Shown piece by piece: positions 1,459 to 56,151 of a DNA stretch of 64,000 nt (position 1 is the stretch's first letter; each line of letters starts with the position of its first letter). Origin of the DNA: Chloroflexia bacterium (GTDB taxonomy: Bacteria; Chloroflexota; Chloroflexia; QHBQ01; JADMIH01). The position numbers and the translations under genes were made by a program. The stretch is taken from positions 3,866 through 67,865 of the forward strand of contig DASWMJ010000009.1 of the NCBI GenBank assembly GCA_036399775.1. Reading direction: 5' to 3'. The notes below the pieces were generated by a model. The model made no database searches, was not told where the DNA came from, and worked only from the letters and a program-made list of their open reading frames with translations.

Positions 1459-1460
1459 CG

Positions 1461-1552
1461 AATTTTGAATTCTAAATTCTAAATTTTGAGTTATCCGCCT
1501 ATTTCAGAGGTTGTCTGAATTTAGAATTCAAAATTCAAAACTCAAAATTCAG
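1461..1552. repeat. Inverted pair of AT-rich tandem-heptamer arrays (AATTCTA/AACTCAA type) flanking a ~25-bp centre
   Basis: aattttgaattctaaattctaaattttgag ... aatttagaattcaaaattcaaaactcaaaattc. The arms are approximately reverse-complementary and the element sits between two permease genes. Confidence 0.7.
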
Positions 1553-32821: not shown

Positions 32822-32859
32822 CAGGTCTTGATCGTTCTCGGAGGCTTAATGCAACCACA

Positions 32860-32985
32860 CCGCCCGGCGACTAAAGTCGCGGGCAACAACAACAAAGTCG
32901 CCCTTCGGCGACTACTTTCATGGCATAGTCCGCGTAGGCGGACTTCGTAACCGTAGCCCGCGAATTCATTCGCCGGGCGGTGTCC
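32860..32985. repeat. REP-like structured palindrome, solo copy (family also flanking the IS200-like tnpA)
   Basis: ccgcccggcgactaaagtcgcgggcaac...gtcgcccttcggcgac...agtccgcgtaggcggact...cgccgggcgg. Nested hairpins. About 85-90% identical to 44149-44275 and 44738-44870. Confidence 0.7.
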
Positions 32986-35690: not shown

Positions 35691-35700
35691 AATCTTACCC

Positions 35701-35812
35701 TACTGCGTAGTGCGTAGTGCGTAATTGTTGAACCGCAAAATCGCAAAGGAACGCAGAGTTCGCAAAGGTTATTATAGGTTCTACGCAATACGCAATACGT
35801 TTACGTTTCACG
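35701..35812. repeat. Inverted pair of heptamer arrays (GCGTAGT / CGCAATA type) between the two ABC genes
   Basis: ctgcgtagtgcgtagtgcgtaa ... ctacgcaatacgcaatacgtttacgtttcacg. Confidence 0.65.
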
Positions 35813-36978: not shown

Positions 36979-38133
36979 ATGTCGTTCAACATAACGATCC
37001 GCGTAATCGGGATGTTGCTGTTCGCGGCGGCGGGCCTTCTCCTGGGGCTGGACCTCTCTCCCAGGCTCTACGGCGATAGCCCTAACGGCTTCAACGAGGT
37101 CGTTCTGCCCCTCACCATCGGTGGCGCGCTCGTCGGCTTCTTCCTGCTGCCATACCTGACCATCTACCCGTTGCGGTGGGTGCGCAACAGGCTCAGGATG
37201 ATGCCCGCGCTGGACCTTATCTCGGCTGCGGTGGGCCTCTTCGTGGGCTTGCTGCTGGGTGCGCTGCTGGCGTGGCCCCTCAGCACGCTGCCGGGGTGGT
37301 TGGGCCAGGCAGCGCCTACCGTCTCAACGCTCCTTTTCGGATACCTCGGCATATACGCGAGTGTGCTACGCAAGCGTGACGTGCTTGATGCGTTGCGCCT
37401 CGAACGTAAGAAGGAATCCACTAACGGCTCCGGGAATGGGAACAGACACCCGCGCGTTGAGAGCTTGCGCCTGGCGACGGGCCAGCTACACCCTGATACG
37501 GTTACGGCTCCGGACGATAGGATACAGACCGAAAAGTACCTGCTGGTAGATACGAGCGCCATCATTGACGGGCGCATAGCCGACATCAGCAAAACAGGCT
37601 TCCTGGACGGCGTGCTTCTAGTGCCGCGCTTCATACTCAACGAATTGCAGCACATCGCGGACTCGGCGGACGGCCTGCGCCGGGCCAGGGGCCGCCGGGG
37701 ATTGGATATGCTCAACCGTTTGCAAAAGGAGTCGGTGGTGCCTATCCAAATAAGTGAAGTGGACGCGGAGGATATACCGGAGGTAGACGGCAAGCTGGTG
37801 AAGATCGCCCGCGTCTACCACTGTCCCATAATCACCAACGACTTCAACCTGAACCGCGTAGCCGAGATACAGGGTGTGAAGGTGCTCAACATCAACGAAT
37901 TGGCGAACGCGGTAAAGCCTGTGGTGCTGCCGGGCGAGGAGATGAACGTCCACGTAATCCAGGAAGGCAAGGAATTGGGTCAGGGCGTAGCCTACCTGGA
38001 CGACGGCACGATGGTGGTAGTGGAGAACGGCAAGAAGTACATGCACAACGACGTAGACGTAGTCGTGACGCGCGTCCTGCAAACGGTAGCCGGGCGCATG
38101 ATATTCGCGCAAATGAAGAACGGGCGAGTTTAG
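36979..38133 (+). CDS. PIN/TRAM-domain membrane protein (YacL-like)
   Basis: N-terminal TM helices; PIN core KYLLVDTSAIIDGRI; C-terminal TRAM-like beta-barrel (...VVVENGKKYMHNDVDVVVTRVLQTVAGRMIFAQ). Synteny yacL-ispD-ispF as in Firmicutes. Confidence 0.8.
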   Translation: MSFNITIRVIGMLLFAAAGLLLGLDLSPRLYGDSPNGFNEVVLPLTIGGALVGFFLLPYLTIYPLRWVRNRLRMMPALDLISAAVGLFVGLLLGALLAWPLSTLPGWLGQAAPTVSTLLFGYLGIYASVLRKRDVLDALRLERKKESTNGSGNGNRHPRVESLRLATGQLHPDTVTAPDDRIQTEKYLLVDTSAIIDGRIADISKTGFLDGVLLVPRFILNELQHIADSADGLRRARGRRGLDMLNRLQKESVVPIQISEVDAEDIPEVDGKLVKIARVYHCPIITNDFNLNRVAEIQGVKVLNINELANAVKPVVLPGEEMNVHVIQEGKELGQGVAYLDDGTMVVVENGKKYMHNDVDVVVTRVLQTVAGRMIFAQMKNGRV

Positions 38134-38213
38134 GGATCAGGGGCCAGGGGCTAGGGGTCAGGGATTTGTACCTGGCGGATCCTGATCCCTGATCCCTAAC
38201 CCCTGGCCCCTGG
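38133..38213. repeat. Inverted pair of heptamer arrays (GGGGTCA/GGGGCCA type)
   Basis: gggatcaggggccaggggctaggggtcaggg ... cctgatccctgatccctaacccctggcccctgg. Confidence 0.7.
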
Positions 38214-38222: not shown

Positions 38223-38951
38223 ATGAGTGTTATGGTAGCGATAATCGTAGCGGCGGGGCGGAGCCAGAGGATGGGCGGGGCTGATAAGCAGTTGCGGACC
38301 ATCGCGGGGGTGCCCGTGCTGGCTCGCACGGTCGAGGCTTTCAGCGCGTGCCCCGACGTGGGCGCTATCGTGCTCGTGCTCAACCCCGACAATATGGTGG
38401 GCGCTGCCGAGATGAAGATGGAGTACGGCTGGGACAAGGTGCAGGCGATGGTGCCGGGTGGGGAGCGTCGCCAGGACTCGGTGGCTGCCGGGCTGGCGGC
38501 TGTGAAGTCAATGGGCCGGGGAGGCTCAGGCTATGAGTGGGTGGCGGTCCATGATGGGGCGCGTCCCCTCGTCACGCCTGACGTGATAAGTCGCGGGCTG
38601 GAAGCGGCGCGTGAGGTTGGCGCGGCTATCGCAGCCGTGCCCGCTACCGATACGGTAAAGGTGGTGGACGCCTCTCGTATTATTACCGCCACACCTGAGC
38701 GAAGCAACCTGTGGCTGGCGCAGACCCCGCAGGTCTTCCGAACGTCGCTGCTCGCGGGCGCTTACGAAGCCCTGGCGAGCGACGATGCGCTGCTGGATGT
38801 GACAGATTGCGCGCGCCTGCTTGAACTGACGGGCCACGCCGTGAAGATATTCGAAGGCGAGCGCACGAATATCAAAATAACTACCCCACTCGACCTCTGG
38901 ATAGCTGAGGCTATCGTGAGGGGCCAGGGGCCAGGGGCGAGGGGCCAGTAG
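38223..38951 (+). CDS. ispD: 2-C-methyl-D-erythritol 4-phosphate cytidylyltransferase
   Basis: VAIIVAAGRSQRMGGADKQ...GVPVL is the IspD N-terminal signature. The last ~11 codons (VRGQGPGARGQ) are encoded by a GGGGCCA heptamer array. Confidence 0.88.
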   Translation: MSVMVAIIVAAGRSQRMGGADKQLRTIAGVPVLARTVEAFSACPDVGAIVLVLNPDNMVGAAEMKMEYGWDKVQAMVPGGERRQDSVAAGLAAVKSMGRGGSGYEWVAVHDGARPLVTPDVISRGLEAAREVGAAIAAVPATDTVKVVDASRIITATPERSNLWLAQTPQVFRTSLLAGAYEALASDDALLDVTDCARLLELTGHAVKIFEGERTNIKITTPLDLWIAEAIVRGQGPGARGQ

Positions 38952-39488
38952 TTGGGAGAAGATCGGCAGTATCATGGCTACCGTGCCGGTTTTGGTTACG
39001 ACGCGCACAGGCTGGTAGAGGGTCGCCCTCTTATCCTGGGGGGTATCGAGGTGCCCTTCGAGAAGGGATTAGACGGGCACTCGGACGCCGACGTGCTGCT
39101 GCACGCTCTTATAGACGCCATCCTGGGCGCGGCGGGCATGGGCGATATAGGCACCCACTTCCCCTCGTCCGACCCGGCGTTAGAGGGCATATCCAGCGTT
39201 GACATGCTCGCAAGGGTTATGGAGAAAGTGAGTGAGGAAGGCTGGCGGGTGGAGAACGTAGACGGCACGATTGTCGCTCAACGTCCGCGCCTCTCTTCCC
39301 ACACGCCTCGCATGAAGGCAAAGATAGCCGCGATAGTGGGTATCGAAGAAAGCCATGTCAACATCAAGAGCAAGACCACCGACGGGATGGGCTTCACAGG
39401 CACGGGAGAAGGCATGGAGGCCTATTGTACCGTGATGATGGTTAGATATAAGTATGACCTAGAGCCTGTGACGAACTACAGGGAATAA
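38952..39488 (+). CDS. ispF: 2-C-methyl-D-erythritol 2,4-cyclodiphosphate synthase
   Basis: RAGFGYDAHRL...GHSDADVLLHALIDAILGA are the metal-binding motifs of IspF. Non-ATG start immediately after the ispD stop. Confidence 0.88.
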   Translation: MGEDRQYHGYRAGFGYDAHRLVEGRPLILGGIEVPFEKGLDGHSDADVLLHALIDAILGAAGMGDIGTHFPSSDPALEGISSVDMLARVMEKVSEEGWRVENVDGTIVAQRPRLSSHTPRMKAKIAAIVGIEESHVNIKSKTTDGMGFTGTGEGMEAYCTVMMVRYKYDLEPVTNYRE

Positions 39489-39628
39489 AGTTGATACAAT
39501 CGGGGATGGAAGACAAAGAACGATACCCCGGTGATGTAAGTGGTGATGACTGGCTCTCACAACCTTCTCGCCCAATCCTTACGCGCCTGCCAACGATTTA
39601 CAAAGTAGCTTACTAGGAGGTTCCACTG

Positions 39629-40294
39629 ATGGAGCCCAGTCGGACCCCAAAAAAGAGCGTGCTCGCTATTCTCCTCTTCTATATCGGCCTGTTCGACGCT
39701 CTATTCCCCAGAACCTGGACGCTGTATCAGAAGTTGCGAAACTCCTTAGTGAGGTTCCTTTACTTAGTGGCAGGGGTTCTTGGAGTGCCGATTATTGCCT
39801 GGTGGCTTACATATCTTGCCGCTGGGCAACTCGACCCGATGCACCAAGTTCAAGTTTCAAAGGGCTTCCTGTATTTGTATCTGGTCCTCGACCTGGTTTG
39901 TTTCACTTTCCTCGGGCGAATATTGATAACTAGACTTGATGCAATTTACGAGAAATCAATAGGGAGGTATGAGTTTGTACGACGCTATATAGTAGTACCG
40001 ATACCACTTCCCGGTGTTATTGACAACGTTACATACAGGGGCCTGATTCGTAGTCTTGCTCCTGAGTTCGTAACGATATTGATATACGGCCTACTCGTAG
40101 TAGCGGCAATGATTGCTAAATTCGAGGACTTCTCCGGGGTAGAAATCATTACAGTGAGTCTTTGGAAAGATTACCGCTCGGTCTTCGTTGAAGTTCTGCT
40201 CACATACATTATCATTATTGAAGGCTATAAGCGACTGGATGAGTGGTTTCAAAAAGCTAATGTCGCTCACGATATAGCCAGTAAATCCGAGTAG
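39629..40294 (+). CDS. Hypothetical membrane protein in a low-GC patch
   Basis: 221 aa, 5-6 hydrophobic helices, AT-richer than the flanks, followed by MITE-like element B. Confidence 0.5.
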   Translation: MEPSRTPKKSVLAILLFYIGLFDALFPRTWTLYQKLRNSLVRFLYLVAGVLGVPIIAWWLTYLAAGQLDPMHQVQVSKGFLYLYLVLDLVCFTFLGRILITRLDAIYEKSIGRYEFVRRYIVVPIPLPGVIDNVTYRGLIRSLAPEFVTILIYGLLVVAAMIAKFEDFSGVEIITVSLWKDYRSVFVEVLLTYIIIIEGYKRLDEWFQKANVAHDIASKSE

Positions 40295-40321
40295 GAACTA
40301 TTCCAGAGAAGTCTAACGTCT

Positions 40322-40385
40322 TATAGCCCCGGAGGGGCGTAAAACATAGACAGGGGCTATTTAAGACTTACGCCCTTCCGGGGCT
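40322..40385. repeat. MITE-like palindromic element B, copy 1 (TATAGCCCCGGAGGGGCGTAA arms)
   Basis: tatagccccggaggggcgtaa ... ttacgcccttccggggct. Second copy at 62231-62316. Confidence 0.65.
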
Positions 40386-40476
40386 TGGTTTGGCTGCTGC
40401 CCCCTACATTGATAATTATGGGGCTGCTCGATAGCTTTCGCTGCGATAGCCTCCTCTCACCCCTGACCCCTGATCT

Positions 40477-40964
40477 CTACCTCGTCCATCGCCCCTCTAT
40501 GGCTACCAGCAACTCCTCGAAATAGGCCGACACCTCCGGGTAATTGCATTTTGCCTGAACGGCTATCCGGCCGTCCGCAAGCGGAAAAACCATGAATACT
40601 ATCGCCTGGTAGTGCATTATGATGCCGCCTTCTTTCTCGCAAAAGAGGGCATTCATGGTGAGCAGGGTGTTATCCTCGGCCTCGTTCTCGTCCGTTCGCC
40701 TGGGCGCGTGGGCCTGCTCGATAGTGTAGTAGCCGTCGGGCGTGTGGTATTTTTGCCTGGGGGTTGTGCGCGCGGCTGCATTGAGCCAGCGTGCAAAGTG
40801 GTCCGCGTTTGTGTCGAGCAGCAGCGTCCGAGCCGCGCCGGATCGAGGTTTGTCCTGCCCAGCAGCGTCCGGGTAAAGGGCATCCAGGCGCGCAATCAGG
40901 CTCTTCATACGCGCCTGGCGAGCTTCTTTGCTCTCTTCATTTCCCTGGTTGTTATTTACATCGG
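40477..40964 (-). CDS. Hypothetical protein (trimmed from the over-extended ORF 40477..41265)
   Basis: From MSDVNNNQGNEESKEARQARMKSLIARLDALYP.... The upstream 100 codons of the longer ORF are Arg/Cys/Pro-rich and overlap the dtd promoter. Weak RBS. Confidence 0.35.
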
Positions 40965-41069
40965 ACATAGCTTTCGCCCCGTCAGGGTAGTTGATAATAG
41001 TATGGCACACGCGTAAAATGCATAATATCATATCGCAGTAACATTCTCTGACCCCAACATCCAACACCC

Positions 41070-41519
41070 ATGAGAGCAGTAGTACAGCGAGTAACGCACG
41101 CGAGCGTCGAAGTTGAGGGTGAGACTGTGGGCAGTATCGGCCCCGGCTTTCTCGTGCTGCTCGGCGCGGGGCGCGACGACACAGAGGAGGACGTGCGCTA
41201 CATCGCCCGCAAGATAGCCGAGATGCGCATCTTCCAGGACGCGGATGGCAAGACGAACCTTTCACTGGCAGACGTGGGTGGCGCTATCCTGCTGGTGTCG
41301 CAGTTCACCCTCTACGCCGATACGCGCAAGGGGAGGCGGCCTTCCTTCACCGACGCCGCCCCGCCCGATCTCGCGAATGCGCTGGTAGACAGGTGCGCCC
41401 AACTCTTCCGAGAGGCGGGCCTCCACGTAGAGACAGGCCGGTTCGGCGCGCACATGCACGTGTCTCTACTCAACGACGGCCCGGTAACGATCCTGCTAGA
41501 CACGGCAGGCCATGTATGA
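41070..41519 (+). CDS. dtd: D-aminoacyl-tRNA deacylase
   Basis: MRAVVQRV...GPGFLVLLG...SQFTLY...NDGPVT; the SQFTLY motif is diagnostic. Confidence 0.88.
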
Positions 41520-41520
41520 A

Positions 41521-41634
41521 CCGTATTGCGTAAAGCTATATAGAGTTTGTACAATCCCACAAATCGCTTAGTGTTCTTTGTGTCTTTGTGGTTCGATAAT
41601 CACGCAATACGCAATACGAACTACGCAATACGAG
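41521..41634. repeat. Composite repeat: GAACCACAAAGACACAAAGAACACTAAG unit (reverse orientation) joined to a CGCAATACG heptamer array
   Basis: cttagtgttctttgtgtctttgtggttcgat aatcacgcaatacgcaatacgaactacgcaatacg. The same unit in opposite orientation is at 61326-61460; a partial is at 14676-14697. Confidence 0.7.
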
Positions 41635-41648
41635 TCCAGGAGCACTCC

Positions 41649-42836
41649 ATGATACAGACACCACCGGCTTCGATTGACCCTATCATTTCGCGGTTGCGGC
41701 CACGCTCTGTGGGCGAGGTGGTTGACCACTCATTCAGGCTTTATCGCAGGCACTTCCTGACGTTCCTGGCGATAACGGCCATCATCTTTGTGCCTGTGCA
41801 ACTGGCTATCCAGGCATTGACCCTCTGGATACAGGGTAGCACCGGGATGTTAAATAACGCGTCGGACCCGCTAACCTCCAGCGATTTTCAGGGCGGCGCT
41901 GCCAATGAGGTATTTATAGGCCTGATGATAGCGCTAATCGCGCTGCTGGTGCTGGCAGTACTGGGTAGCCTCTTGATGTATCTGAGCCAGGGCGCGCTCA
42001 CCGCCGCCGTAGCCGACAGCCATCTCGATAAGCCCGTCAGCTTCGGAGAGGCATACCGCAGTATGCTCAAACACGTCGGCCCGTTGCTGGGTATCATGGC
42101 CTTGCAGGTACTGGTTGGTATAGGGGTCTTCATACCTGTGTTCTTGCTTTTCTTTGTGGCTATACTCATGGTTGCCGGCTCGGGGGACGGCGCTGGCGCA
42201 GCCTTCGGGCTGATATGTTTTGCCTTCCTGGCTATGATACCGGCGTTCGTCTTCTACATATATATTAGCGTGCGCTGGTCGCTGGTCGTGCCCGCTATCA
42301 TGGTTGAGAACCTCGGCCCGGTGCAAGCTATCCGCAGAAGCTGGGGACTTGTTCAGGACTACTGGTGGCGCACGGCAGGCATAGGCTTCCTCCTCTACGT
42401 AATCGAAGCCATAATTTCGGCGGGGCCTGTATACGTAATTACGGCGCTGGCGTTGGTCCTGTTCAGAAATATGGACCCGGTGGCGCTTGGTGCCATAACA
42501 GGAGGGATAACGGTACTCACCACACTCTTGTACGTGCCGCTCGAACTGACGGCCTGGACCCTCTATTATTTCGACCAGAGAGTGCGCAAGGAAGGCTTCG
42601 ACATAGAGACCGCCCTGGCGCAGAGGTACCCCCAGGCACCGCCCCCCGGCTATAATGTCGGGCAACCTGGTCAACCGCAGCAATACGGCCCGGCGCAAAG
42701 CGGCGCTGTGGCCCCGCCTGTGCTTGGCTACGAGTCGCAGGGGGCGGGCTATGGGTCAGGCTATGGTCAAAGTTACAAGCAACCTGAGCAGCCCCGCCAA
42801 ACTCCGCAAGACGATGATACACCGCCCCAGGGTTGA
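41649..42836 (+). CDS. Hypothetical polytopic membrane protein with Pro/Gln/Gly-rich C-terminal tail
   Basis: MIQTPPASIDPIISRLRPRSVGEVVDHSFRLYRRHFLTFLAITAIIFVPVQLAIQAL..., 6+ TM helices. Tail ...PPPGYNVGQPGQPQQYGPAQSG.... Confidence 0.55.
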   Translation: MIQTPPASIDPIISRLRPRSVGEVVDHSFRLYRRHFLTFLAITAIIFVPVQLAIQALTLWIQGSTGMLNNASDPLTSSDFQGGAANEVFIGLMIALIALLVLAVLGSLLMYLSQGALTAAVADSHLDKPVSFGEAYRSMLKHVGPLLGIMALQVLVGIGVFIPVFLLFFVAILMVAGSGDGAGAAFGLICFAFLAMIPAFVFYIYISVRWSLVVPAIMVENLGPVQAIRRSWGLVQDYWWRTAGIGFLLYVIEAIISAGPVYVITALALVLFRNMDPVALGAITGGITVLTTLLYVPLELTAWTLYYFDQRVRKEGFDIETALAQRYPQAPPPGYNVGQPGQPQQYGPAQSGAVAPPVLGYESQGAGYGSGYGQSYKQPEQPRQTPQDDDTPPQG

Positions 42837-42921
42837 GGACCGCAAGCACGATGCTCACCGAATCGCCCGAACTCTCCACTGGACTTGCACGCTACAACGC
42901 CGGAAAAGGTGGTAGCGGGCA

Positions 42922-44136
42922 GTGAGTGCCCTTGTTCAGCAATTTGGCAGCATCCCCGCACGCATGAAGTGGGGCGGCCTGGCCGCTGTTGTGCTTATGG
43001 CGGCGCTCCTGGGGTGGTACTTCTTCCGCAGCGCGCCGGGGCAGGGCCAGCTAGCCGCGCCACCCCCGCCGCGCCCCGCTATCGGCAAGACGATCACATA
43101 TAGGGAATATACCGCCGCCATACTCAGCGCGCTCTCCGATGTCCGCAAGGCCAAACCGGCTGCGTTGGGTGACGAGCGGGAAGAGTTGCTCAAGAAAGCG
43201 GCAGGTACCCTCGAAGGAGTAGAGGGCGCGGGCACGCCCGCGCGAGATGGTGGTCTGTCGGAGATAGACAACACCGCTATCATTGACGCGCTCAGGGCTA
43301 AAGACCCGGATGTCGAGGATATAGAGTCCAGCCTGTCGGCGCTTGCCCAGGGCTTACAGGGAGGCGCGTTAGACCCGGTGGCGGGCACGCTCGATGGCGC
43401 GCAGGCCACCGGCGCGATGCATGAGGTGTTGAACGACCCCATCTTCGACTACGAGCAGCAGATATCACCCCTGCAAAGGTTGGCGCGCTGGCTTGCCGGT
43501 TTCACGGGAGATGGCGACCCTGACGACGTGCTCTGGCGGTGGTTCTCAGCCCTGGTGGCAGCCATAGCTGCGGGCGCGCTCACGTTTCTGGCGAGTGACA
43601 AGTTGGGCAATCGCTGGGCGCGGCTGGGGCTTGCGGTGTTAGTAGGTTTGCTCGTCGGGGCGCTCTTCTTTGCTGGGTTGGGCGCGATTGACGACACAAT
43701 ACTGCTTTTGGGTGCCGTGGGGCTGGTGGTAGCGGCTATAGTGGTCGGCCTACTCGTGGCGGGACTGGGTCGCGGGTCCGCGCCGAGCGCGAGGCCGCCC
43801 GCTATATCGGAGCTGGCTGCGGCCCTGGGCATGAACGCCGCCGAAGCGCGCAGGAGATCGGCGGAGGCTGCGGGAGAGGGCGATTACCGTGGAGCGATAA
43901 GATACAGGTGCCTGGCCGTGCTCCTCGCGCTTGACGAGGTGGGCAGGCTCACGTTCGACCGGGCCGCCACCAACCGTGAATACCTGTACCGCGCCCCCGG
44001 CACCCTCCAGGAAGAGCTACAGCCCCTGCTCACCCGCTTCGATGCTATCTGGTACGGCGGCTCCCCCACCGATGGAGAGGAATGGGCCGAGTATTCGGAG
44101 CGCGCTGCTCGAATAGAAGCGCAGGTGGCTGTGTGA
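42922..44136 (+). CDS. DUF4129-like protein (first gene of the MoxR/DUF58 cluster)
   Basis: C-terminus LTFDRAATNREYLYRAPGTLQEELQPLLTRFDAIWYGG is typical of DUF4129. N-terminal TM helices. GTG start (alternative ATG at 42964). Confidence 0.6.
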   Translation: MSALVQQFGSIPARMKWGGLAAVVLMAALLGWYFFRSAPGQGQLAAPPPPRPAIGKTITYREYTAAILSALSDVRKAKPAALGDEREELLKKAAGTLEGVEGAGTPARDGGLSEIDNTAIIDALRAKDPDVEDIESSLSALAQGLQGGALDPVAGTLDGAQATGAMHEVLNDPIFDYEQQISPLQRLARWLAGFTGDGDPDDVLWRWFSALVAAIAAGALTFLASDKLGNRWARLGLAVLVGLLVGALFFAGLGAIDDTILLLGAVGLVVAAIVVGLLVAGLGRGSAPSARPPAISELAAALGMNAAEARRRSAEAAGEGDYRGAIRYRCLAVLLALDEVGRLTFDRAATNREYLYRAPGTLQEELQPLLTRFDAIWYGGSPTDGEEWAEYSERAARIEAQVAV

Positions 44137-44148
44137 AAATAGACAGAA

Positions 44149-44275
44149 TTGCCCTTGCGACTGAAGTCGCGGGCAACAAAAACAAAGTCGCCCTTCGGCG
44201 ACTACTCTATCCAATATAGTCCGCGCAGGCGGACTTCGTAATCGTTGCCCGCGACTTCAGTCGCAAGGGCAATTT
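44149..44275. repeat. REP-like palindrome, copy flanking tnpA on the 5' side
   Basis: attgcccttgcgactgaagtcgcgggcaac...gtcgcccttcggcgac...agtccgcgcaggcggact...gttgcccgcgacttcagtcgcaagggcaat. Confidence 0.75.
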
Positions 44276-44299
44276 TGACAATAGCAAAGGGGCAGGCGT

Positions 44300-44728
44300 A
44301 TGCGCGCACCTTACACGCAACTTTATCTGCATTGCGTTTGGGCAACATGGGATCGCTTGCCATTGATTACCCCTACCGTTGAGCCGCACGTTTATGCTTG
44401 TATAGCTACCAAGTGTGAGGAGCATAGTTGTGAAACGCTTGCCGTTGGTGGAATTGAGGACCATATTCACCTACTGGTACGCTTTCCTCCTACGCTTGAA
44501 ATAGCAAGAATTATGAAAGAGGTAAAAGGCGCATCGTCGCACTTGATGACACATGTGCTTACGCCGGATGTCTTCTTCAAGTGGCAAGGCGGGTATGGAG
44601 CATTCACGGTTACTAAATTTGGAGTGGATAAAGCCAGAGCCTATGTAGAGAAGCAAAAGGAGCATCACTCCGCGAACCGGTTGTTTTCAGAATGGGAACG
44701 ATACGAATTCGATGATAAAGATGCGTGA
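44300..44728 (+). mobile_element. tnpA: IS200/IS605-family Y1 transposase (TnpA; REP-associated tyrosine transposase-like)
   Basis: 142 aa. HxH motif in GIEDHIHLLVRF; N-terminus MRAPYTQLYLHCVWATWDRLPLI and ...GGYGAFTV... are typical of IS200-like TnpA. Flanked on both sides by REP-like palindromes. Confidence 0.8.
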
Positions 44729-44737
44729 TCCCCGACA

Positions 44738-44870
44738 TTGCCCAGCGACTGAAGTCGCGGGCAACAAAAACAAAGTCGCCCTTCGGCGACTACTCTCTCC
44801 TAGAGAGTCCGCCTGCGCGGACTTCGTTTCCGTTGCCCGCGACTTCAGTCGCCGGGCAATCCTCCGGCGC
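44738..44870. repeat. REP-like palindrome, copy flanking tnpA on the 3' side
   Basis: attgcccagcgactgaagtcgcgggcaac...gtcgcccttcggcgac...agtccgcctgcgcggact...gttgcccgcgacttcagtcgccgggcaat. Confidence 0.75.
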
Positions 44871-44881
44871 GAGGCAAGCAT

Positions 44882-46138
44882 ATGAGCATAGAGCCTGTAC
44901 GCCAGGGCAACAGCAGGCTCGGCGAGCTTGCGGTGCTCGGCGTGTCTGTGGTGGCGGTCTTCGCCGGCATGATATGGCTGGTCGGCCTGCAAGGTACGTC
45001 AGACACGCCCGAAAGCGCGGGTTCTTCCCAGAGCGCGGGGCGCAGGGGTACGCTGGCTCTCTACAGGTGGTTGGAGAGATCGGGGTTTGAGGTATCACGT
45101 GTGGCGGGCGGGGAGCAGTTCCCGCCGCGCGTAGATACTCTTATCATGGTCAACCCCAACGGGGACTTCCCTCAGGGGCAGGCGGGCAGCGTGCGCCGGT
45201 GGGTAGAGGAGGGGCACACCCTCATCCTCGCGCTGGGCAGCAGGAACGGCGATCTGAGCACAGGCATAGGAGGCAGACACCCTATGCTACGCGAGCTTGG
45301 CATTGACCTCGACCTGTCACCCGGTTATTCCTCGACGGTGCCTCTTTCCCAGCCTCTTTTCAGCCGCCCGCCGGTATCGAAAGTCAAGTTGCCAGGGGTA
45401 TTCAGGTTGGAGTTGCCTGTGCGCGACACCGTTGTGCTCGCATCTTCCGGCAACGAGGATGGCAGCCGCGCACACCTGGCCGCTTTGCTCAAGCTGGGCG
45501 AGGGGCGCGTTTTCGTGCTCGCCAGCGATTACCCTCTCAACAACGAGGGTCTGCGCGACGAAGACAACGGCGCATTCATCTATAACATGGCGCAGGCGGC
45601 AGGCGGCAGGCGTGTAGCCTTTGACGAAGCGCATCACGGCCAGAGCGTCGGCGGCGACCTCATCGCCCTCTTGACGGACAATCCCTGGGGTTGGGCGCTA
45701 CTCTATGGCGTGCTGCTCACGGGCGTATATATCTTTTGGAGCGCGCGCCGCCTCGGCCCTCCACTGCCGGTAAGGTCGCCCGACCAGCGTAGGCCCACTT
45801 CCGATTACGTTACTTCGGTGGCGGGCCTCTTCAGGCGAGCACGCAAGCCGGGTTACGTTGCGGAGCGCTATCTACAGTTTTTCAAGCGCACCCTCTCACG
45901 CCACGCCGAGCTAGACCCGACCCTCACCGACTCGCGCTTCGTGCAGGCGCTCTCTGAACGAGGTCGCCATACCTTTGACCCGGAAAGTATGCTGCGTGCC
46001 GTAGAGCGTCTGCGTCGCCTGGAAGGTGAGGCTACGGCTGGTGAAGGCATAGAGTTAGAGACGCTAAAGGCGATACGAGAGGCGGAAAGAGTTAGGCGGG
46101 AGGCCTTGGGGCTGCGGAGTGATTCTGAAAACGGCTGA
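44882..46138 (+). CDS. DUF4350-like protein (MoxR cluster)
   Basis: N-terminal TM; GTLALYRWLERSGFEV...LIMVNP resembles the DUF4350 signature. It sits between DUF4129 and MoxR as in the canonical cluster. Confidence 0.6.
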   Translation: MSIEPVRQGNSRLGELAVLGVSVVAVFAGMIWLVGLQGTSDTPESAGSSQSAGRRGTLALYRWLERSGFEVSRVAGGEQFPPRVDTLIMVNPNGDFPQGQAGSVRRWVEEGHTLILALGSRNGDLSTGIGGRHPMLRELGIDLDLSPGYSSTVPLSQPLFSRPPVSKVKLPGVFRLELPVRDTVVLASSGNEDGSRAHLAALLKLGEGRVFVLASDYPLNNEGLRDEDNGAFIYNMAQAAGGRRVAFDEAHHGQSVGGDLIALLTDNPWGWALLYGVLLTGVYIFWSARRLGPPLPVRSPDQRRPTSDYVTSVAGLFRRARKPGYVAERYLQFFKRTLSRHAELDPTLTDSRFVQALSERGRHTFDPESMLRAVERLRRLEGEATAGEGIELETLKAIREAERVRREALGLRSDSENG

Positions 46139-46228
46139 AATTTGCTATTCACCGCTTGTACGAAATCATAGAATATAGTAGGATAAAGATAGCGCAGTTT
46201 GCGCTATTTACACAAAAGGGGGTATATC

Positions 46229-46501
46229 ATGGAGAAGGCAATAAGTGCGTTCGAGGCAAGACGTAACTTTGGAAAGTTGCTACAGGACGTTGCAGCAAAG
46301 GGAGACAAGATAGTTGTAGAGCGTCACGGAGAGCCGGTGGCTGTGCTGGTGCCCATGTCAGTTTATAAGCAATGGCAATGCAACAGGGAGAGGGCATATA
46401 ACACTCTGCGGGAGATATCTGAACGGGTGAACATGTCTGAGGAAGAGGCCAATATACTCATTGAGGAGGCCATAAGCGCGGTTCGCAGAGGCGAAGATTG
46501 A
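46229..46501 (+). CDS. Type II antitoxin, Phd/YefM family
   Basis: MEKAISAFEARRNFGKLLQDVAAKGDKIVVERHGEPVAVLVPMSVYKQW; AAGGGGG RBS. Confidence 0.75.
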   Translation: MEKAISAFEARRNFGKLLQDVAAKGDKIVVERHGEPVAVLVPMSVYKQWQCNRERAYNTLREISERVNMSEEEANILIEEAISAVRRGED

Positions 46502-46920
46502 TGAAGGTGGTGGTAGACGCTAACATTATTATTAGTCGTATACTCGTGCCCACAGGCGTACCAGCACAGGTTATAGAATACCATAAGAAAACGATTGAAC
46601 TTCTGACTTCCGAGCCTATTCTTGCGGAATGTCGCAGGGTGATGCGCTACAAACGCCTTCGCGCACGTCATCATTTGACTGACGATGAGATAGATTTGGC
46701 TATTGATTCGTTTAGGGAGATTGCCGATGTGGTGGAAGGAATCATGAATCTTGATGTCATCACAAAAGACCCGGACGACAATAAGATTATTGAATGCGCG
46801 GTGGTAGGCGGGGCTGATTACATAGTAAGTGGTGACGCCCACCTACTCAATGTCGGAGAGTATAAAGGCATCAGGATTCTCTCCCCCGCAAGTTTCCTAC
46901 TCCTATTAAAACGGGCCTAG
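46498..46920 (+). CDS. PIN-domain toxin (VapC-like), overlaps antitoxin stop by 4 nt
   Basis: MMKVVVDANIIISRIL... with acidic residues at typical PIN positions (DAN, ...SGD). ATGA overlap with the upstream antitoxin. AT-richer DNA. Confidence 0.6.
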   Translation: MMKVVVDANIIISRILVPTGVPAQVIEYHKKTIELLTSEPILAECRRVMRYKRLRARHHLTDDEIDLAIDSFREIADVVEGIMNLDVITKDPDDNKIIECAVVGGADYIVSGDAHLLNVGEYKGIRILSPASFLLLLKRA

Positions 46921-47020
46921 TTCATCTTACACCGTTGCCCCACCCCACCACCCTCTGCTATACTAAGCCCTCGACAGGGGCCGATAATACACACCTTTTA
47001 TCCATCATGGAGGTGCGCGC

Positions 47021-47779
47021 ATGACGGTGACCATTCAGCAAGAGGACTGGCAGAAGGTGCTCGCCGAGGTGGTCGGCACGTTCTTTTTCTTTTTCATCGG
47101 CATAGGCAGCGTGGCGTGGGTGCAGACCGGCGGCGTGGTTTACGTGGCGCTGGCTCACGGCCTGGCGCTGGCGATAGCTATCTCGGCGTTGGGGCACATA
47201 TCGGGCGGGCACTTCAACCCCGCCGTGACGCTGGGCCTCATGGTAGCCCGCAAGATTAGCCCTATGCTGGCTCTGCTTTATATCGTAGGGCAGATAGTAG
47301 GAGGCGTGCTGGCCTGCCTCGCGGTGGCTTTTGTGCTCCCCCCAGGCACAGTCCAGAGTGCCACTCCCCATCTCGCGGGCGGCATAGGTATGCTAGAGGC
47401 GATAATCCTTGAGGCAATACTTACTTTCTTCCTGGTCATCGCCGTCTTCGGCACGGCAGTAGACCCACGCGCCACTCGCATCGGCGGCTTTGGCATCGGT
47501 CTCACCGTGTTCGCTGACATCCTGGTGGGCGGGCCAGTGACGGGCGGAGTGATGAACCCGGCCAGGGCCATTACCCCCGCCATCATCGCCCGCGACTTCC
47601 AGCCGGATATGCTAGTGTACTGGGTAGGCCCCATCGTAGGAGGCATAATAGCAGCCCTCCTATACTCAATGGTCTTCCTGCCGAAGGGTGACGAGCCGAT
47701 AATCAAAGCCCCCGACGCCACCGATAGACTCGTAGAGCCGCCTCTGAGCGAGCCTGGGCTGGTGACAAACAGAAAGTAA
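47021..47779 (+). CDS. Aquaporin / MIP-family channel
   Basis: Two NPA boxes: [14 protein letters not shown] and [12 protein letters not shown]. Confidence 0.88.
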
Positions 47780-47789
47780 GGAGTATTAC

Positions 47790-48731
47790 TTGCCACTCGT
47801 AGACATGTATCGCGCCCTTGATAGCGAGCGGCGCAAAGTTATCGTTGGGCAGCGTTGGACGTTCGATTTGCTGCTCGTGGCCCTGCTCACCGACGGGCAC
47901 GTCTTGTTGGAGGGAGTGCCGGGGGTGGCTAAGACCCTCATGGCGCGCACCCTTGCTACTACCCTGCGAGCCGACTTCAAGCGCGTGCAGTTCACACCTG
48001 ACCTCATGCCCTCCGACGTTATCGGCACCAACGTATTTGACCTGGCGAGCAGCACTTTCTCTCTGAGGCGGGGACCCGTATTTACCAGCATCATGCTAGG
48101 CGACGAGATAAACCGCGCCCCGGCCAAGACCCAATCGGCACTCCTGGAAGCGATGGAGGAGCGTCAGGTGACTATTGACGGCGTGAGCCACCCCCTGCCC
48201 GATCTCTTCATGGTCATCGCCACCCAGAACCCAATCGAGTACGAGGGCACCTACCCCTTGCCGGAGGCGCAACTCGACCGCTTCCTCTTCAAAGTGCTGG
48301 TGGACTACCCTACGCACGAAGAAGGTCTGCAAGTATTGAGGAATTACCAGGCGGGGTTCAGTCCGCGCAGGCTAACGGGTATAGAGCCGGTGGCGGGGCC
48401 GGACGACCTGCGCTCGGCGCGCCACGAGATAGCCGCCATCAAAGTAGCCGACCCGCTGATCGACTACATCCAGCGCATCGTGGACGAGAGCCGCCGCTCA
48501 CCCGATTTGTCGCTGGGTGGCTCCCCACGCGCCGCGATAGCCCTTCTCAACGCGAGCAAAACCCTCGCCGCGCTCCAGGGCCGCGAGTACGTTGTGCCCG
48601 ACGACATCAAGCTCCTGGTGCCGCCCGTTATGCGCCACCGCGTCATCCTCAAACCCGAAGCTGAGATAGAGGGGCTGAACGCCGATCGTGCCCTTGAGCG
48701 CATCATGGCGCGGGTCGAAGTACCCAGGTAA
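47790..48731 (+). CDS. MoxR-family AAA+ ATPase
   Basis: Walker [13 protein letters not shown], Walker B region [24 protein letters not shown], then the ...[21 protein letters not shown] sensor motifs. Confidence 0.88.
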
Positions 48732-48784
48732 ATTGCGAATTTCGGATTGCGGATTGCGAATTTGATGACCTTAGATTTTACGGC

Positions 48785-50164
48785 ATGATAACGCGGCGTG
48801 CTCTTTATTTGCTGCTGCTCGCGGCACCTATACTCGCGCTGGCGACTATAGTGCCCGTCGCTGTATGGGCGGCTGCTCTTTACCTGGCGGGTATGCTGGC
48901 GCTGCTGGCCGCCGACTTTTGGCTGTCGCCCAAGCCTTCCGACTTCAGGCTTGCACGGGAGAATGAAAGCAAGCTCTCCCTCGGTGCAGACAACATGGTG
49001 CGTATCGCTATCAGGCGGCTGGGCGCGCCCGGCGGCCAGGGCCTGAGAGATGCCCCCGTGCCCTTCCTGGTGCGCGACGAGCCTCCGGTCGAGTACATCG
49101 CCAGCGACGTATTTCTCCCACGCAGCAACGAGGCAAATAACTCAAAACTCAAAACTCAAAACTCAAAACTCGAAATCGGTCCAGGGGAGACGGCGGAAGT
49201 CAGCTATACCGTCAAGCCGTTGCGGCGCGGGGACTATGCGTTCGGTGGGTGCCACCTGCGCTATGGCGGCGTGCTGGGCCTCATCCTCCGCCAGCATCGC
49301 TACCCCATCGGTGCGCCCGTGAAGGTCTACCCTAACCTACTGGAAGTGCGTAAATATGAATTGCTGGCGCGGCGGGACCAGCTATTCGAGATAGGGCTGA
49401 AGAATGCTCGGCGCATAGGGCAGGGCACCGAGTTCGAGCGGCTGCGTGACTATGAGCGCGACGACGACTACCGCCGCATCAACTGGCCCGCCACCGCCCG
49501 CCTGCACAAGCCCATCACTACGGATTACCAGCCCGAAAGGAGCCAGAGCGTTATCGTCATGCTCGACGCGGGGCGATTGATGACCGCGCCCCTCGGCCCG
49601 CTCTCCAAGCTCGATTATGCTATCAACACGACGCTACTGCTGGCATACGTAGCTATAATTCGGGGGGACCGGGTCGGCCTCCTTACCTTCGCCGATAGAG
49701 TGACGGGCTACTGGGAGCCGGACAAGGGCCGCAAGCAGTTCCTCGCGCTGCTGGATGCCCTCTACAAGGTGCAGCCCCAGCAAGTTGAGGCCGATTATAT
49801 GCGGGCGAGCGCGTTCCTCTCTACGAGGCGCAGCAAGCGCAGCCTGGTGGTGCTCTTCACCGACATTATAGACAGGCAGCAGGCCGACGTGATGGTGCGC
49901 GGCTTCGGGCGGCTGGCCCCACGCCACCTGCCTGTGGCCGTGACTATGGCCGACAACGAAGTGCTGACTATGGCCCACCGCGAACCGTCCGATGCCCAGC
50001 AGATGTACGAGAAGGTAATCGCCCAGCAACTCCTGGACGACCGCGTGAAGGCTCTGGACGCCCTCCAACGCCGGGGCGCGCTCACCATAGACGTGCCCGC
50101 CGACAAGCTGACGCCTGCGGTAGTGAACAAGTACCTTGAGCTAAAGGCGCGAGGGAGGTTGTAA
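48785..50164 (+). CDS. DUF58-domain protein (vWA-like, MoxR partner)
   Basis: DYERDDDYRRINWPATARLHKPITTDYQPERSQSVIVMLDAGRLM is the DUF58 core. Contains an in-frame AACTCAA heptamer array (49139-49177) encoding NSKLKTQNSKLEI. Confidence 0.8.
   Translation: MITRRALYLLLLAAPILALATIVPVAVWAAALYLAGMLALLAADFWLSPKPSDFRLARENESKLSLGADNMVRIAIRRLGAPGGQGLRDAPVPFLVRDEPPVEYIASDVFLPRSNEANNSKLKTQNSKLEIGPGETAEVSYTVKPLRRGDYAFGGCHLRYGGVLGLILRQHRYPIGAPVKVYPNLLEVRKYELLARRDQLFEIGLKNARRIGQGTEFERLRDYERDDDYRRINWPATARLHKPITTDYQPERSQSVIVMLDAGRLMTAPLGPLSKLDYAINTTLLLAYVAIIRGDRVGLLTFADRVTGYWEPDKGRKQFLALLDALYKVQPQQVEADYMRASAFLSTRRSKRSLVVLFTDIIDRQQADVMVRGFGRLAPRHLPVAVTMADNEVLTMAHREPSDAQQMYEKVIAQQLLDDRVKALDALQRRGALTIDVPADKLTPAVVNKYLELKARGRL
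50081..50164. repeat. Direct repeat DR2-left: native 3' end of the DUF58 gene (84 bp)
   Basis: ctcaccatagacgtgcccgccgacaagctgacgcctgcggtagtgaacaagtaccttgagctaaaggcgcgagggaggttgtaa. Partner at 52063-52146 has 5 differences. Confidence 0.85.
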
Positions 50165-50538
50165 AATCGGTTTCAGATCCCCACTCTTCGTATCGTCTTC
50201 AGCCATTGCAATCATTCCATTAGGTTATCAGCCTCGAGTAGGTTGCAGAGGACTTTGAGATGCTTAGGCGAGGGTGATAATTGTGCTGGCTAGCTGTGCT
50301 CAATAATATCTTGGGAAAGTTGAGCTTTGCGTAACGAAAGCCACATAGTATGAATATTCTTCAAAATAGACGTGTAAAATGTGGGAAACTGTGGTACAAT
50401 GAGGTGTACGGAGTGCATATGTTTATGTAATGCCTCGTTTTTCCGCCCTCAGTATAGAGTTCTGGCACCAAGCTATTCAAGAGAAATCAGCATTTTGGGG
50501 TAGGGTGCTAAGAGCTAAAGGAATAAGGGACGAGTGTT

Positions 50539-50862
50539 GTGCCATTCACTAAGGGATTCGTATCTGAATCAGAACTACTCGACCACTTTGATAGGCATAA
50601 TAAACTGATTGGCGCGCATGATGAGCAGCATTACTTACAGCTTGCTGACACGTTTTTAGGCGGTCCCAAAGGCCCCACAACGCTGGAGTGCCCCGAAAGA
50701 GCGCGAGATGGGTGTTTGACTAGATTTGATTATGTTACAAATGAATTTGGTGTGCTGACCCCTGATAGCTATATTCTGTCGTATTATATACCGGAGCCGA
50801 AACGTCATAAACAGCGTACCAATACAAAGTATTTTCAGGCTGATTGCAGGAGCAAAGAATGA
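50539..50862 (+). CDS. Hypothetical protein (107 aa), islet 2 gene A
   Basis: ORF in AT-rich islet, GTG start, overlaps the next ORF by 19 nt. No family recognised. Confidence 0.45.
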   Translation: MPFTKGFVSESELLDHFDRHNKLIGAHDEQHYLQLADTFLGGPKGPTTLECPERARDGCLTRFDYVTNEFGVLTPDSYILSYYIPEPKRHKQRTNTKYFQADCRSKE

Positions 50863-51248
50863 ACTATACATGTCCAGTTTGCGGATACGACAAATTGATT
50901 AGCCCGCCAGCGAACTATCATATTTGCCCATCCTGTGGCACCGAGTTTGAATACGATGACTTTGCCACGAGCCATGATCTGTTGCTTAAGCAGTGGATAC
51001 GAGAAGGGATGCCCTGGCATAAGACGCGAACTGGCCCGCCGCCCGGATGGGATCCGGTCGTGCAGATCTTCCAAGCCGGACTTGGTGCTGCTCTAATCGA
51101 ATTTATGGCAAGGGAAGCCCGGCAGAGCTACGAGGCTATTACACTGGGTACGGTGCAGCCCTACGTTTCAGGTAGCATCAAGCTTACTACTAACGCGCCT
51201 GCACACCAATTGAGCACTCAGAACTGTTTTGCCTTCGCCTCTAGTTAA
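50844..51248 (+). CDS. Hypothetical zinc-ribbon protein (134 aa), islet 2 gene B
   Basis: N-terminal CPVCGYDKLISPPANYHICPSCGTEF (two CxxC pairs). Confidence 0.5.
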   Translation: MQEQRMNYTCPVCGYDKLISPPANYHICPSCGTEFEYDDFATSHDLLLKQWIREGMPWHKTRTGPPPGWDPVVQIFQAGLGAALIEFMAREARQSYEAITLGTVQPYVSGSIKLTTNAPAHQLSTQNCFAFASS

Positions 51249-51266
51249 GTACATGAGAGAAAAGCA

Positions 51267-51725
51267 ATGCCCAAGCTTGTCGTCTTCGCGCCATGCCTAA
51301 AGGTGATTATCAGCGAGAGAGATGACTCACTCTCGCTGATAGCGCTAATGGATGCTATAAAAGTAAGTGTTGCTGAGGGTGCGGAAGTGCCTGCTGATGC
51401 CAAAGTACCTAATGCCTGGGACATCCTCGCTTTTTGGCGTAACTCAGCGGATGATGCAGGAAAGGAATACGAGCAACGTACGCGGCTTTTACTACCTAAT
51501 GGCGAAACGAGTGTAGAAGCAACAATGTCCTTTTCAGGTAATAATCGTTCGCATCGGAATGTGATCAATATTACCGGAGTTCCGGTTGGACAGGCAGGTG
51601 AATGCTCCCTTCAATTATGGCTTCGCGAAGCGGGTGCGGATGATTGGGGAGATCCTGTAGCAGATTATTCTTTGATGGTCATCCATGATACTGTACCAGT
51701 AGAGACGGAGCAACCCGAAGAATAG
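51267..51725 (+). CDS. Hypothetical protein (152 aa), islet 2 gene C
   Basis: ORF 19 nt after gene B, same strand. No family recognised. Confidence 0.45.
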   Translation: MPKLVVFAPCLKVIISERDDSLSLIALMDAIKVSVAEGAEVPADAKVPNAWDILAFWRNSADDAGKEYEQRTRLLLPNGETSVEATMSFSGNNRSHRNVINITGVPVGQAGECSLQLWLREAGADDWGDPVADYSLMVIHDTVPVETEQPEE

Positions 51726-51878
51726 ATAGTAGGAGCAGCCCACGTCATGCTTCCTGTGTGAGACCAAGAAATCCGGCGGGTTACCCGGCAGTGCTTAGGG
51801 TATCGGCGGAGGCACTGAATGGAGAGGTGCTCATAAGATCCTCCTGACTAAAGAGCTCAGTCTTATCATGACTGAGCT

Positions 51879-52046
51879 CTAATCTTCGGCTTCCTCGTCA
51901 AAATCCTCATAGCCCCAATCAACATCGTCCAGTTCATATATGCTCAAAAGTTCGTTCTTTAGATCCTTCCCTTCTACCTCGTTGGAGAAAACCTCTTCTG
52001 AATACACCTGTAGCATACCTTTTTCATCCCTTTCAATCTCAGTCAT
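51879..52046 (-). CDS. Small acidic hypothetical protein (55 aa), islet 2 gene D (start trimmed)
   Basis: MTEIERDEKGMLQVYSEEVFSNEVEGKDLKNELLSIYELDDVDWGYEDFDEEAED. The longer ORF to 52184 is antisense to the duplicated DUF58 3' end. Confidence 0.35.
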   Translation of the reverse strand: MTEIERDEKGMLQVYSEEVFSNEVEGKDLKNELLSIYELDDVDWGYEDFDEEAED

Positions 52047-52062
52047 TTTCCATAAGCCCGTC

Positions 52063-52146
52063 CTCACCATAGATGTGCCTGTCGACAAGCTCACGCCTGC
52101 GGTGGTGAACAAGTACCTTGAGCTAAAGGCGCGAGGGAGGTTGTAA
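52063..52146. repeat. Direct repeat DR2-right: second copy of the DUF58 3' end
   Basis: ctcaccatagatgtgcctgtcgacaagctcacgcctgcggtggtgaacaagtaccttgagctaaaggcgcgagggaggttgtaa. Encodes LTIDVPVDKLTPAVVNKYLELKARGRL-stop, versus native ...PADKL... (4 synonymous and 1 A->V change). Confidence 0.85.
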
Positions 52147-52329: not shown

Positions 52330-52728
52330 ATGAAAAGTAAAGTAATCAAGTCTGATGCGGAGTGGAAGCAACAACTTACCCCGGATCAGTACCGGGTCGC
52401 CCGCCAGAAGGGTACGGAGCGCGCCTTCACAGGCGAATACGCTCACACCCACGACGAGGGCGTGTATAAGTGCGTGTGCTGTGGGGCGGAACTATTCAGC
52501 TCGGACACCAAATTCGAGTCGGGCACCGGCTGGCCCAGCTTCTACGCGCCCATCTCGGAGGAGAATGTCAGCACGGAGACCGACGACAGCTTCTGGATGC
52601 GGCGCACAGAAGTGATGTGTAGCGCCTGCGACGCCCACCTGGGCCACGTCTTCGATGACGGCCCCCAGCCGACGGGCCTGCGCTATTGCATCAACTCGGC
52701 ATCTCTCAAGCTGGATAGGGAAGCGTAA
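52330..52728 (+). CDS. msrB: Peptide methionine sulfoxide reductase MsrB
   Basis: CxxC...CxxC zinc site and GTGWPSF...RYCINSASL catalytic motif. Confidence 0.88.
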
Positions 52729-52738
52729 AACGTAAAAC

Positions 52739-56057: not shown

Positions 56058-56151
56058 AATCTCCCCTCCCCACGCTGGGGGTGGGGTGTTAGGGTTCCGA
56101 ATCTAAATTTCGGGATGTGTCCTGTGTCTGAAAGAAGTGGAGGCAGGCGGG

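Follow-up and report, generated by a model that had tools for sequence, protein, structure and literature searches.

Short tandemly repeated repetitive (STRR) sequences with a heptanucleotide unit were reportedly described in the cyanobacteria Calothrix and Nostoc by Mazel et al. in 1990. In Xanthomonas (GGGAATC) and Nostoc (GGGGA(T/C)T), dispersed tandem units of 7 nt show under-representation within coding regions and lie near start and stop codons, in Xanthomonas with many convergent inverted pairs; the position of an array is conserved between related genomes and its length differs, with a preference for four units, a number that allows a G-quadruplex (G4) (Rehm et al. 2015, PMC4692102). 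The TAACTGA direct repeats of marine Beggiatoaceae, cyanobacteria and Bacteroidetes form arrays just 5' of start codons that overlap the ends of open reading frames (ORFs), where stop codons in the unit limit the reach of the ORF into the array; only one unit sequence is used in this system, its repeats are nearly always direct, and there is just one inverted pair (MacGregor 2015, PMC4679880). A general excess of heptanucleotide simple sequence repeats (SSRs) is credited to Mrazek et al. 2007 in the summary given by PMC4679880, and in Haemophilus influenzae heptanucleotide repeats control HMW1A through SSR-mediated phase variation (PMC8262952). Here we analyze the 7-bp arrays of a 64,000-nucleotide stretch of contig DASWMJ010000009.1 (the window), whose host is an uncultured soil Chloroflexia lineage represented by metagenome-assembled genomes only, as judged from source annotations and the closest genomes. 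An original prediction had pointed to arrays within ispD and within a DUF58-family gene and had seen in them potential phase-variable frameshift sites. We conclude that the coding repeats are probably tolerated, frame-constrained members of a lineage-wide population of 7-bp arrays, and not demonstrated switches.

The heptanucleotide-repeat phenomenon is already known from cyanobacteria, Xanthomonas and Beggiatoaceae, and the Chloroflexia arrays join it; our literature search found no publication linking heptamer repeats to Chloroflexi. As in Xanthomonas and Nostoc, the arrays avoid coding sequence, sit at gene ends, form inverted pairs and keep their position while varying in length, and the family GGGRYCA is very similar in sequence to the units of those organisms. 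Unlike there, at least six unrelated unit families coexist here, units are replaced wholesale between strains, most units cannot form a G4, and the host is an uncultured soil Chloroflexia. The TAACTGA system shares with this one an overlap of array and ORF end that is governed by stops within the unit; it differs in that the present arrays use many units, are mostly hairpins and, where the unit is stop-free, are translated for 10-16 residues. A lineage-specific excess of period 7 over other periods and a mainly intergenic location are common to these arrays and the cyanobacterial STRR sequences. The HMW1A repeats are likewise heptanucleotide SSRs tied to a gene, with slippage as the assumed mutational process; those tracts, however, are of considerable length, differ in repeat number both between strains and inside one strain and govern surface proteins, whereas the tracts here are short, invariant in length in the strains compared and located in genes that are not of the contingency type. 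What differs from the known systems are the many coexisting unit families, the wholesale replacement of units, and the translated in-frame arrays of 10-16 residues; concerted in-frame unit replacement within genes is not described in PMC4692102 or PMC4679880.

Tandem Repeats Finder (TRF) reports 24 period-7 arrays in the window. A strict detector retains eight, compared with zero or one for each of the other periods from 4 to 12, and returns no period-7 array in 20 shuffles of the window; 14-mer searches gave 7 and 10 matches against 0.21 and 1.35 expected. Across the clade (the window and 12 relatives' loci) the census is 67 period-7 arrays in 140 kb, and at 70 other IspD loci from diverse bacteria it is 44 in 525 kb, with period 7 unexceptional there. 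The arrays avoid genes: at ~78% coding, 3-4 of the 24 in the window are coding (three clear, the fourth candidate weak; P ~1e-10), and at 14 loci from relatives, with 80% coding, the overlap with ORFs concerns 5 of 46 arrays. Spacers hold most arrays, and most lie no more than ~100 nt from a stop or start codon, many no more than 25 nt. The unit families in the window and the clade loci include GGGRYCA, AAYTCWA, TGCGKAN and AACGTGA, among others. Several properties of heptanucleotide SSR families are found here (head-to-tail units, many loci, depletion in coding sequence, conserved position with differing copy number), and the one or few characteristic units per genome are not. Many of the spacer arrays are paired in inverted orientation, and the pairs form strong hairpins (z = -4.2 to -6.9). 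The coding arrays of ispD and DUF58 are single-armed and without hairpin (z = +0.6 and +0.7), and a search for an inverted, decayed partner beside either found none; Rfam gave no family match anywhere in the window. The array at 1461-1552 had been described as dominated by the heptamer of the DUF58 gene. Its units are indeed related, but AATTCAA and AATTCTA dominate and exactly one AAACTCA unit is present. Two further candidates for coding arrays were discarded, 42273-42288 (CGCTGGT x2.3) as too short and weak, and 41602-41632 as lying upstream of the start used by the ENA gene call.

Features of the window that bear on the coding arrays (positions are those of the window)
Feature	Position	Strand	Basis
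Spacer hairpin, AATTCTA/AATTCAA family, one AAACTCA unit	1460..1552	+	RNA fold -28.7 kcal/mol, z = -5.3
Hairpin spacer from PIN/TRAM gene (stop at 38133) to ispD	38133..38213	+	RNA fold -62.1 kcal/mol, z = -6.9
ispD (2-C-methyl-D-erythritol 4-phosphate cytidylyltransferase), 242 aa	38223..38951	+	Pfam PF01128 residues 4-233, E = 1.9e-60
AGGGGCC x4.3 array, 91% matches, encoding the IspD tail RGQGPGARGQ	38919..38948	+	TRF, translation
ispD stop TAG and ispF (YgbB, 178 aa) from TTG	38949..39488	+	Pfam PF02542 residues 11-163
DUF4350 gene	44882..46138	+	Pfam PF14258
Perfect GCAGGCG x3 array, 21 nt, 7 codons	45592..45612	+	TRF, strict detector, alignment
Spacer array AATTGCG x4.6, MoxR ATPase gene (47790-48731) to DUF58 gene	48731..48762	+	TRF
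DUF58-family gene, 459 aa, MoxR ATPase partner	48785..50164	+	Pfam PF01882 residues 220-393; VWA_2 also matches
16-residue insertion NEANNSKLKTQNSKLE, 48 nt, relative to 443-aa orthologues	49127..49174	+	Alignment, codon-level comparison with L083, L086, L088

The 3' end of ispD provides the clearest view of a spacer-type array inside a gene. As first noted, it reads GTG AGG GGC CAG GGG CCA GGG GCG AGG GGC CAG TAG and encodes VRGQGPGARGQ*. The proposal that one unit family brackets the gene is borne out as well: the array in the hairpin upstream and the array at the 3' end are both GGGRYCA, a family with a further member at 422-444. The G-rich arm of the upstream hairpin is GGGATCA GGGGCCA GGGGCTA GGGGTCA GGGAT; a 19-nt loop and a complementary C-rich arm follow, and the latter terminates at the Shine-Dalgarno motif of ispD, GGAGGA. 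The ten-residue Gly/Arg/Gln tail lies beyond the IspD fold, the repeat-encoded residues being 233-242 and the Pfam domain ending at residue 233. That the array lengthens the ORF is also correct, as it is stop-free and as relatives at 67-72% IspD identity end 3-5 residues past the last helix, beyond AEAILK.

The basis for why the ORF is lengthened in the window and not in those relatives lies in the unit. Because 7 and 3 are coprime, reading in any frame meets all seven triplets of a unit within seven codons (the earlier arithmetic, by which three heptamers equal seven codons, is correct), and for this reason only stop-free units are read through. On the sense strand no stop triplet occurs in GGGGCCA, AACTCAA or GCAGGCG, and this accounts for an ispD ORF that is longer in the window than in the relatives at 67-72%. 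In these relatives arrays of their own begin at or just past the ispD stop. TGAAACG arrays follow ispD in L005, L006 and L012 (loci of relatives carry L numbers), with the stop codon inside the first unit; L010 has a TAGATCT array, L008 has AATTAAG x6, and L007 has none. Trailing arrays with TGA or TAG (L005, L006, L012, L010) close the ORF at once. The same is seen at the msrB-msrA junction of the window (52724-52740), where the msrB stop TAA falls within the first unit of a CGTAAAA array; the L086 junction carries a CGTGAAA array and the stop TGA. An array would persist in an ORF only if its unit is stop-free on the sense strand and the site tolerates extra residues. At ispD, the ORF reads through the junction array as far as the TAG that abuts the TTG of ispF.

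Comparison of ispD loci provides insight into the age of this array. The array has the same length in L084, L085, L098, L099, L003 and L004, and a tail of 10-11 codons is held down to ~75% IspD identity (nine IspD proteins compared). In L084 and L085 (95-97% identity) the array differs from that of the window by substitutions alone, one of which creates TAG TAG TTG at the ispD-ispF junction of L084; in both, whole units distinguish the hairpin upstream of ispD from that of the window. The first three Gs of all four units are invariant in the three strains, with 6-7 changes at the other 16 positions. Relatives at 75-80% (L098, L099, L003, L004) encode a tail of equal length from decayed array DNA, and the junction of L098, AGGGCAC AGGAGCT AGGCGTC AGGGGCC AG TAG, leads directly into a GTG start of ispF. 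The window, L085 and L098 share the last unit and stop without change (AGGGGCC AG TAG), and L084 departs from them by a single C-to-T substitution. Because the relatives at 75-80% share the tail with decayed repeats, the array is old and not recent; it was already present in the ancestor of relatives down to ~75% IspD identity and is decaying outside the window's strains. The original prediction had set its repeat-derived residues against residues conserved without nucleotide repeats, and for IspD the latter pattern is found in part, since these relatives keep a Gly-rich tail in which the repeats have decayed. Only strains whose hairpin upstream of ispD shares the unit family retain a repeat-like tail; in other lineages the spacer of this hairpin carries AATTACG (L098), GACGACA (L099), TAGTGGT (L005/L006/L012) or GAATTAT (L003).

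The array also lies close to the start of the next gene. The TTG of ispF directly abuts the TAG of ispD in the same frame as ispD, and it is the sole in-frame start ahead of the conserved GFGYDAH motif. Because the stop is directly followed by the sole possible start, the ispD-ispF junction is filled by the array. The last unit contributes a Shine-Dalgarno-like AGGGG that stands 7 nt ahead of the ispF start; the usual Shine-Dalgarno motifs in the genome are GGAGG/AGGAG at similar spacing. This unit probably serves as the ribosome-binding site of ispF. A bifunctional IspDF fusion made by read-through was considered and rejected, as an in-frame TAG separates the genes and L084 has two consecutive TAGs. 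No homologue of IspDF length is listed among the IspD homologues, which span 182-252 aa, with one of 317 aa that has an N-terminal extension.

In the DUF58 gene the array is of another kind. An AACTCAA x5.3 array at 49139-49175 (96% matches, TRF) lies inside the ORF, as noted at the outset, and encodes NSKLKTQNSKLE. The suspicion that the residues are a lineage-specific insertion is supported by their presence only in alleles of at least 94% identity; the orthologues at 75-85% identity are all of ~443 aa and are without residues 115-130 of the window protein. The site is not the linker that had been supposed; it is a loop with beta strands of the N-terminal domain on either side, and it lies upstream of the Pfam DUF58/VWA region. 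The AlphaFold2 model of the protein has a mean predicted local distance difference test (pLDDT) score of 81, with pLDDT < 50 at residues 115-126. Insertion of the 48-nt array is recent, and the loop that received it, in the N-terminal beta domain, is disordered. Four perfect AACTCAA units are shared with the allele of L083 (96% protein identity), where the insertion flanks have diverged. The corresponding position in L086 (94%) holds AATCGAA x4 instead of AACTCAA x4, with register and total length unaltered; all units have changed together. Seven DUF58 sequences of the 90% cluster contain four distinct versions of the insertion, and the sole length change among them is a 6-nt in-frame deletion of two residues. 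A metagenome scan for further DUF58 relatives returned nine loci, all at no more than 80% identity where the array site was covered, and no new strain-level alleles.

Related arrays occur elsewhere around DUF58 genes. In L087 an ACTCAAA array makes an 8-residue insertion in a different DUF58 loop and was gained separately, and L088 and L089 carry AACTCA-type arrays just 5' of the DUF58 gene. At the spacer orthologous to 48731-48762, the units of L083 are GATTTCA, and L086 is shorter by one unit. A search with an artificial (NSKLKTQ)x6 peptide returned almost only spurious ORFs of 30-74 aa over spacer arrays and was uninformative on real proteins; the spurious matches, in cyanobacteria, Candidatus Thiodiazotropha and others, indicate that the unit occurs elsewhere.

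A third coding array, GCAGGCG x3 in the DUF4350 gene, was absent from the original prediction. It spans the MAQAAGGRR segment, with the codons for AGGR whole and two more partial. DUF4350 homologues have a segment of equal length there (VQMAGSR, AQLSEGN). The array thus overlies an Ala/Gly-rich segment with no length change, so it is no insertion.

The arrays in the spacers of the lineage are highly dynamic. Strain Ga0591232_000249 (L085/L086) has ~89-92% nucleotide identity to the window (aligned blocks around DUF58) and 94-95% protein identity. Comparison of three orthologous spacers (35698-35803, 41500-41660, 48725-48790) with L085, L086 and L083 reveals differing units, copy numbers and loops; the flanking coding DNA is ~89-95% identical, and both arms of a hairpin change together. 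A hairpin family with the conserved core CTTAGTGTTCTTTGTGTCTTTGTGGTTC occurs at 41567-41594 (+) and 61361-61388 (-) and, at a non-orthologous site, at L085:146-173. Its core is flanked by inverted heptamer arrays whose unit varies per copy (TACGCAA, TACGCTT, CACGTTT), and it is like a dispersed element of the miniature inverted-repeat transposable element (MITE) type. Arrays arise and turn over mainly in short gene spacers, usually as inverted pairs forming long hairpins, and the whole-array replacement of AACTCAA by AATCGAA between strains indicates that they are still mutationally active. Purifying selection would then hold the coding arrays in frame and leave them as tolerated passengers, not switches. 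This is the simplest reading, since the spacer arrays are dynamic and the coding arrays keep their length.

We tentatively raise, as a minor possibility, that heptamer arrays of the lineage are actively rewritten where they stand, by a process that could be hairpin-templated or work by way of small mobile elements. If so, whole arrays and both hairpin arms would swap their unit with position and approximate unit number kept, and the unit swap in DUF58 would come about without loss of frame. Arrays ~700 bp apart, such as those of the IspD tail and of the hairpin upstream of ispD, might then exchange sequence. Such arrays would constitute a class of self-renewing microsatellite hairpins distinct from simple slippage.

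The original suggestion of phase variation would make these arrays contingency loci, in which slippage by one or two heptamers, reversibly and under selection, switches DUF58 off and alters the IspD tail and the coupling to ispF. Three does not divide the unit length, and a simulated change of one or two units truncates DUF58 to 176-185 aa (the array is codons 119-131 of 459) or extends the ispD ORF by 20-86 residues across the ispF start. Slippage does occur in the lineage, since spacer arrays of the same strains change by whole units. In the limited strain comparisons, however, the unit number changes at neither the ispD nor the DUF58 array, and no frameshifting allele is found among the strain sequences compared, a small sample biased to intact proteins. 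The ispD junctions compared, three from strains and two from more distant sequences, have the same array length beside spacer arrays that change by whole units, and the length of the IspD tail is frozen down to ~75% identity. The ispD and DUF58 arrays have only 4-5 units, and the ispD array sits at the extreme 3' end, outside the domain, where IspD itself would not be switched. IspD/IspF, DUF58 and DUF4350 (the last two near the MoxR ATPase gene) are not of the surface, host-interaction or restriction-modification type. The methylerythritol phosphate (MEP) isoprenoid pathway, to which IspD and IspF belong, is normally essential in bacteria that depend on it, unlike typical contingency genes. 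We therefore regard contingency loci as highly improbable overall, and phase variation of DUF58 in particular as unlikely. An artifact or chance origin can be set aside almost entirely: the general difficulty of repeat assembly speaks for it and nothing more does, shuffles yield no arrays, and the same arrays recur in the independent samples and assemblies L083, L084, L085 and L086.

The ispD array could be a functional RNA element in which a G4, alone or together with the Shine-Dalgarno-like motif, adjusts the translation of ispF or the stability of the mRNA, the tail being incidental. The sequence GGGGCCAGGGGCCAGGGGCGAGGGG has four G4 tracts with 3-nt loops and so agrees with the rule of four runs of at least three Gs and loops of 1-7 nt; under the G-quadruplex model of ViennaRNA, a G4 of four layers is predicted for the window (-45.5 vs -27.0 kcal/mol) and for L084, and a weaker one of three layers for L085. 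The invariant GGG of each unit and the near-identical last unit and stop are consistent with such an element, as is the preference of the G-rich heptamers of Xanthomonas and Nostoc for four units near stop codons on the sense strand (PMC4692102). Against this, the quadruplex is a prediction; L098 and L099 keep the junction architecture but have lost the potential for a G4, which is weak in L003, and two G tracts are left in L004. This account cannot extend to coding arrays in general, because a G4 is impossible for the arrays of DUF58 and DUF4350. A regulatory role of the predicted G4 at the ispD-ispF junction is thus possible, but as the explanation of the array we consider the RNA element unlikely. 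It would be more improbable still that the coding arrays derive from mobile, MITE-like hairpins inserted in genes, as their single arms or footprints, and not from local slippage. The CTTAGTGTTCTTTGTGTCTTTGTGGTTC family is dispersed, with a copy at the non-orthologous site and an arm unit that varies per copy, whole hairpins including their loops are replaced between strains at the same spacer, and AACTCAA-type arrays recur beside or within DUF58 genes in several lineages (L087, L088, L089). The coding arrays, however, are without the core, a partner arm or a recognizable target-site duplication, the DUF4350 array brings no length change, and no transposase is linked to the hairpin elements.

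Four points weigh against reading the coding arrays as merely tolerated. The invariance of GGG in the ispD units, to which a rough calculation gives a chance of ~2%, hints at constraint beyond tolerance, and the 100% conservation of the AACTCAA units between the window and L083 may mean homogenization or selection. The alleles were retrieved largely via full-length proteins, a route by which out-of-frame (OFF) alleles are under-sampled. Lastly, the window sequence is identical, where compared, to JGI 3300034402 Ga0334960_000007 and ENA ERZ27253115 k141_175468; these two window-carrying assemblies hold no independent information on repeat length, and we assume that they may share one sample.

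If the coding arrays are tolerated members of the wider population, a genome-wide burst of 7-bp repeats has spilled into coding sequence, and only stop-free units at permissive sites have survived. The surviving units make lineage-specific tails and loop insertions and can join a gene junction, contributing stop, likely ribosome-binding site and start. Annotation and comparative study of such low-complexity insertions would call for caution, as they are repeat-derived and not functional motifs, and a non-triplet repeat within a gene is not in itself evidence for phase variation. With its many unit families, stable positions and fast concerted turnover, the lineage is a possible system in which to ask why period 7 is favored in bacteria.

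Downstream of the DUF58 gene, a ~2-kb segment of low GC content (48.6%) separates it from msrB (50165-52146), with four small ORFs, one of which has a faint Zn-ribbon Pfam match. The segment is absent from L086, and the gene calls for the L083 contig likewise put msrB nearer DUF58. An 84-bp direct repeat of the DUF58 3' end (50081-50164 and 52063-52146, 94% identical) flanks the segment, which looks like an integrated element that regenerates the 3' end of DUF58.

Repeats of other periods and other palindromes are also present in the window. An octamer array, CGCCAAGA x3, lies at 19597-19620 with an inverted partner near 19695-19706, and its unit also occurs after ispD in L003; the octamer arrays TCTTTGTG/CACAAAGA lie at 41575-41590 and 61365-61380. 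A tandem repeat of 216 bp (2.1 copies, 76% matches) at 23650-24104 falls inside the minus-strand ORF 23598-26243 and so gives an internal protein repeat. Terminator-like, near-perfect inverted repeats of 25-27 nt with 3-nt loops stand in spacers by predicted gene ends (17354-17408, 23485-23537, 56002-56058). A near-perfect palindrome built on TGTCATTCTGAGCGAAGCGAAGAATCTCG occurs in two copies (2927-3054 and 58693-58856) with arms of 38-43 nt that are 98-100% complementary, and a palindromic spacer element on GGCGACTGAAGTCGCGGGCAACAA...AAAGTC in three (32857-32983, 44139-44282 and 44737-44860). Hairpins on AGCCCCGGAGGGGCGTAAGAC that resemble repetitive extragenic palindromic (REP) sequences lie at 40325-40385 and 62232-62315.

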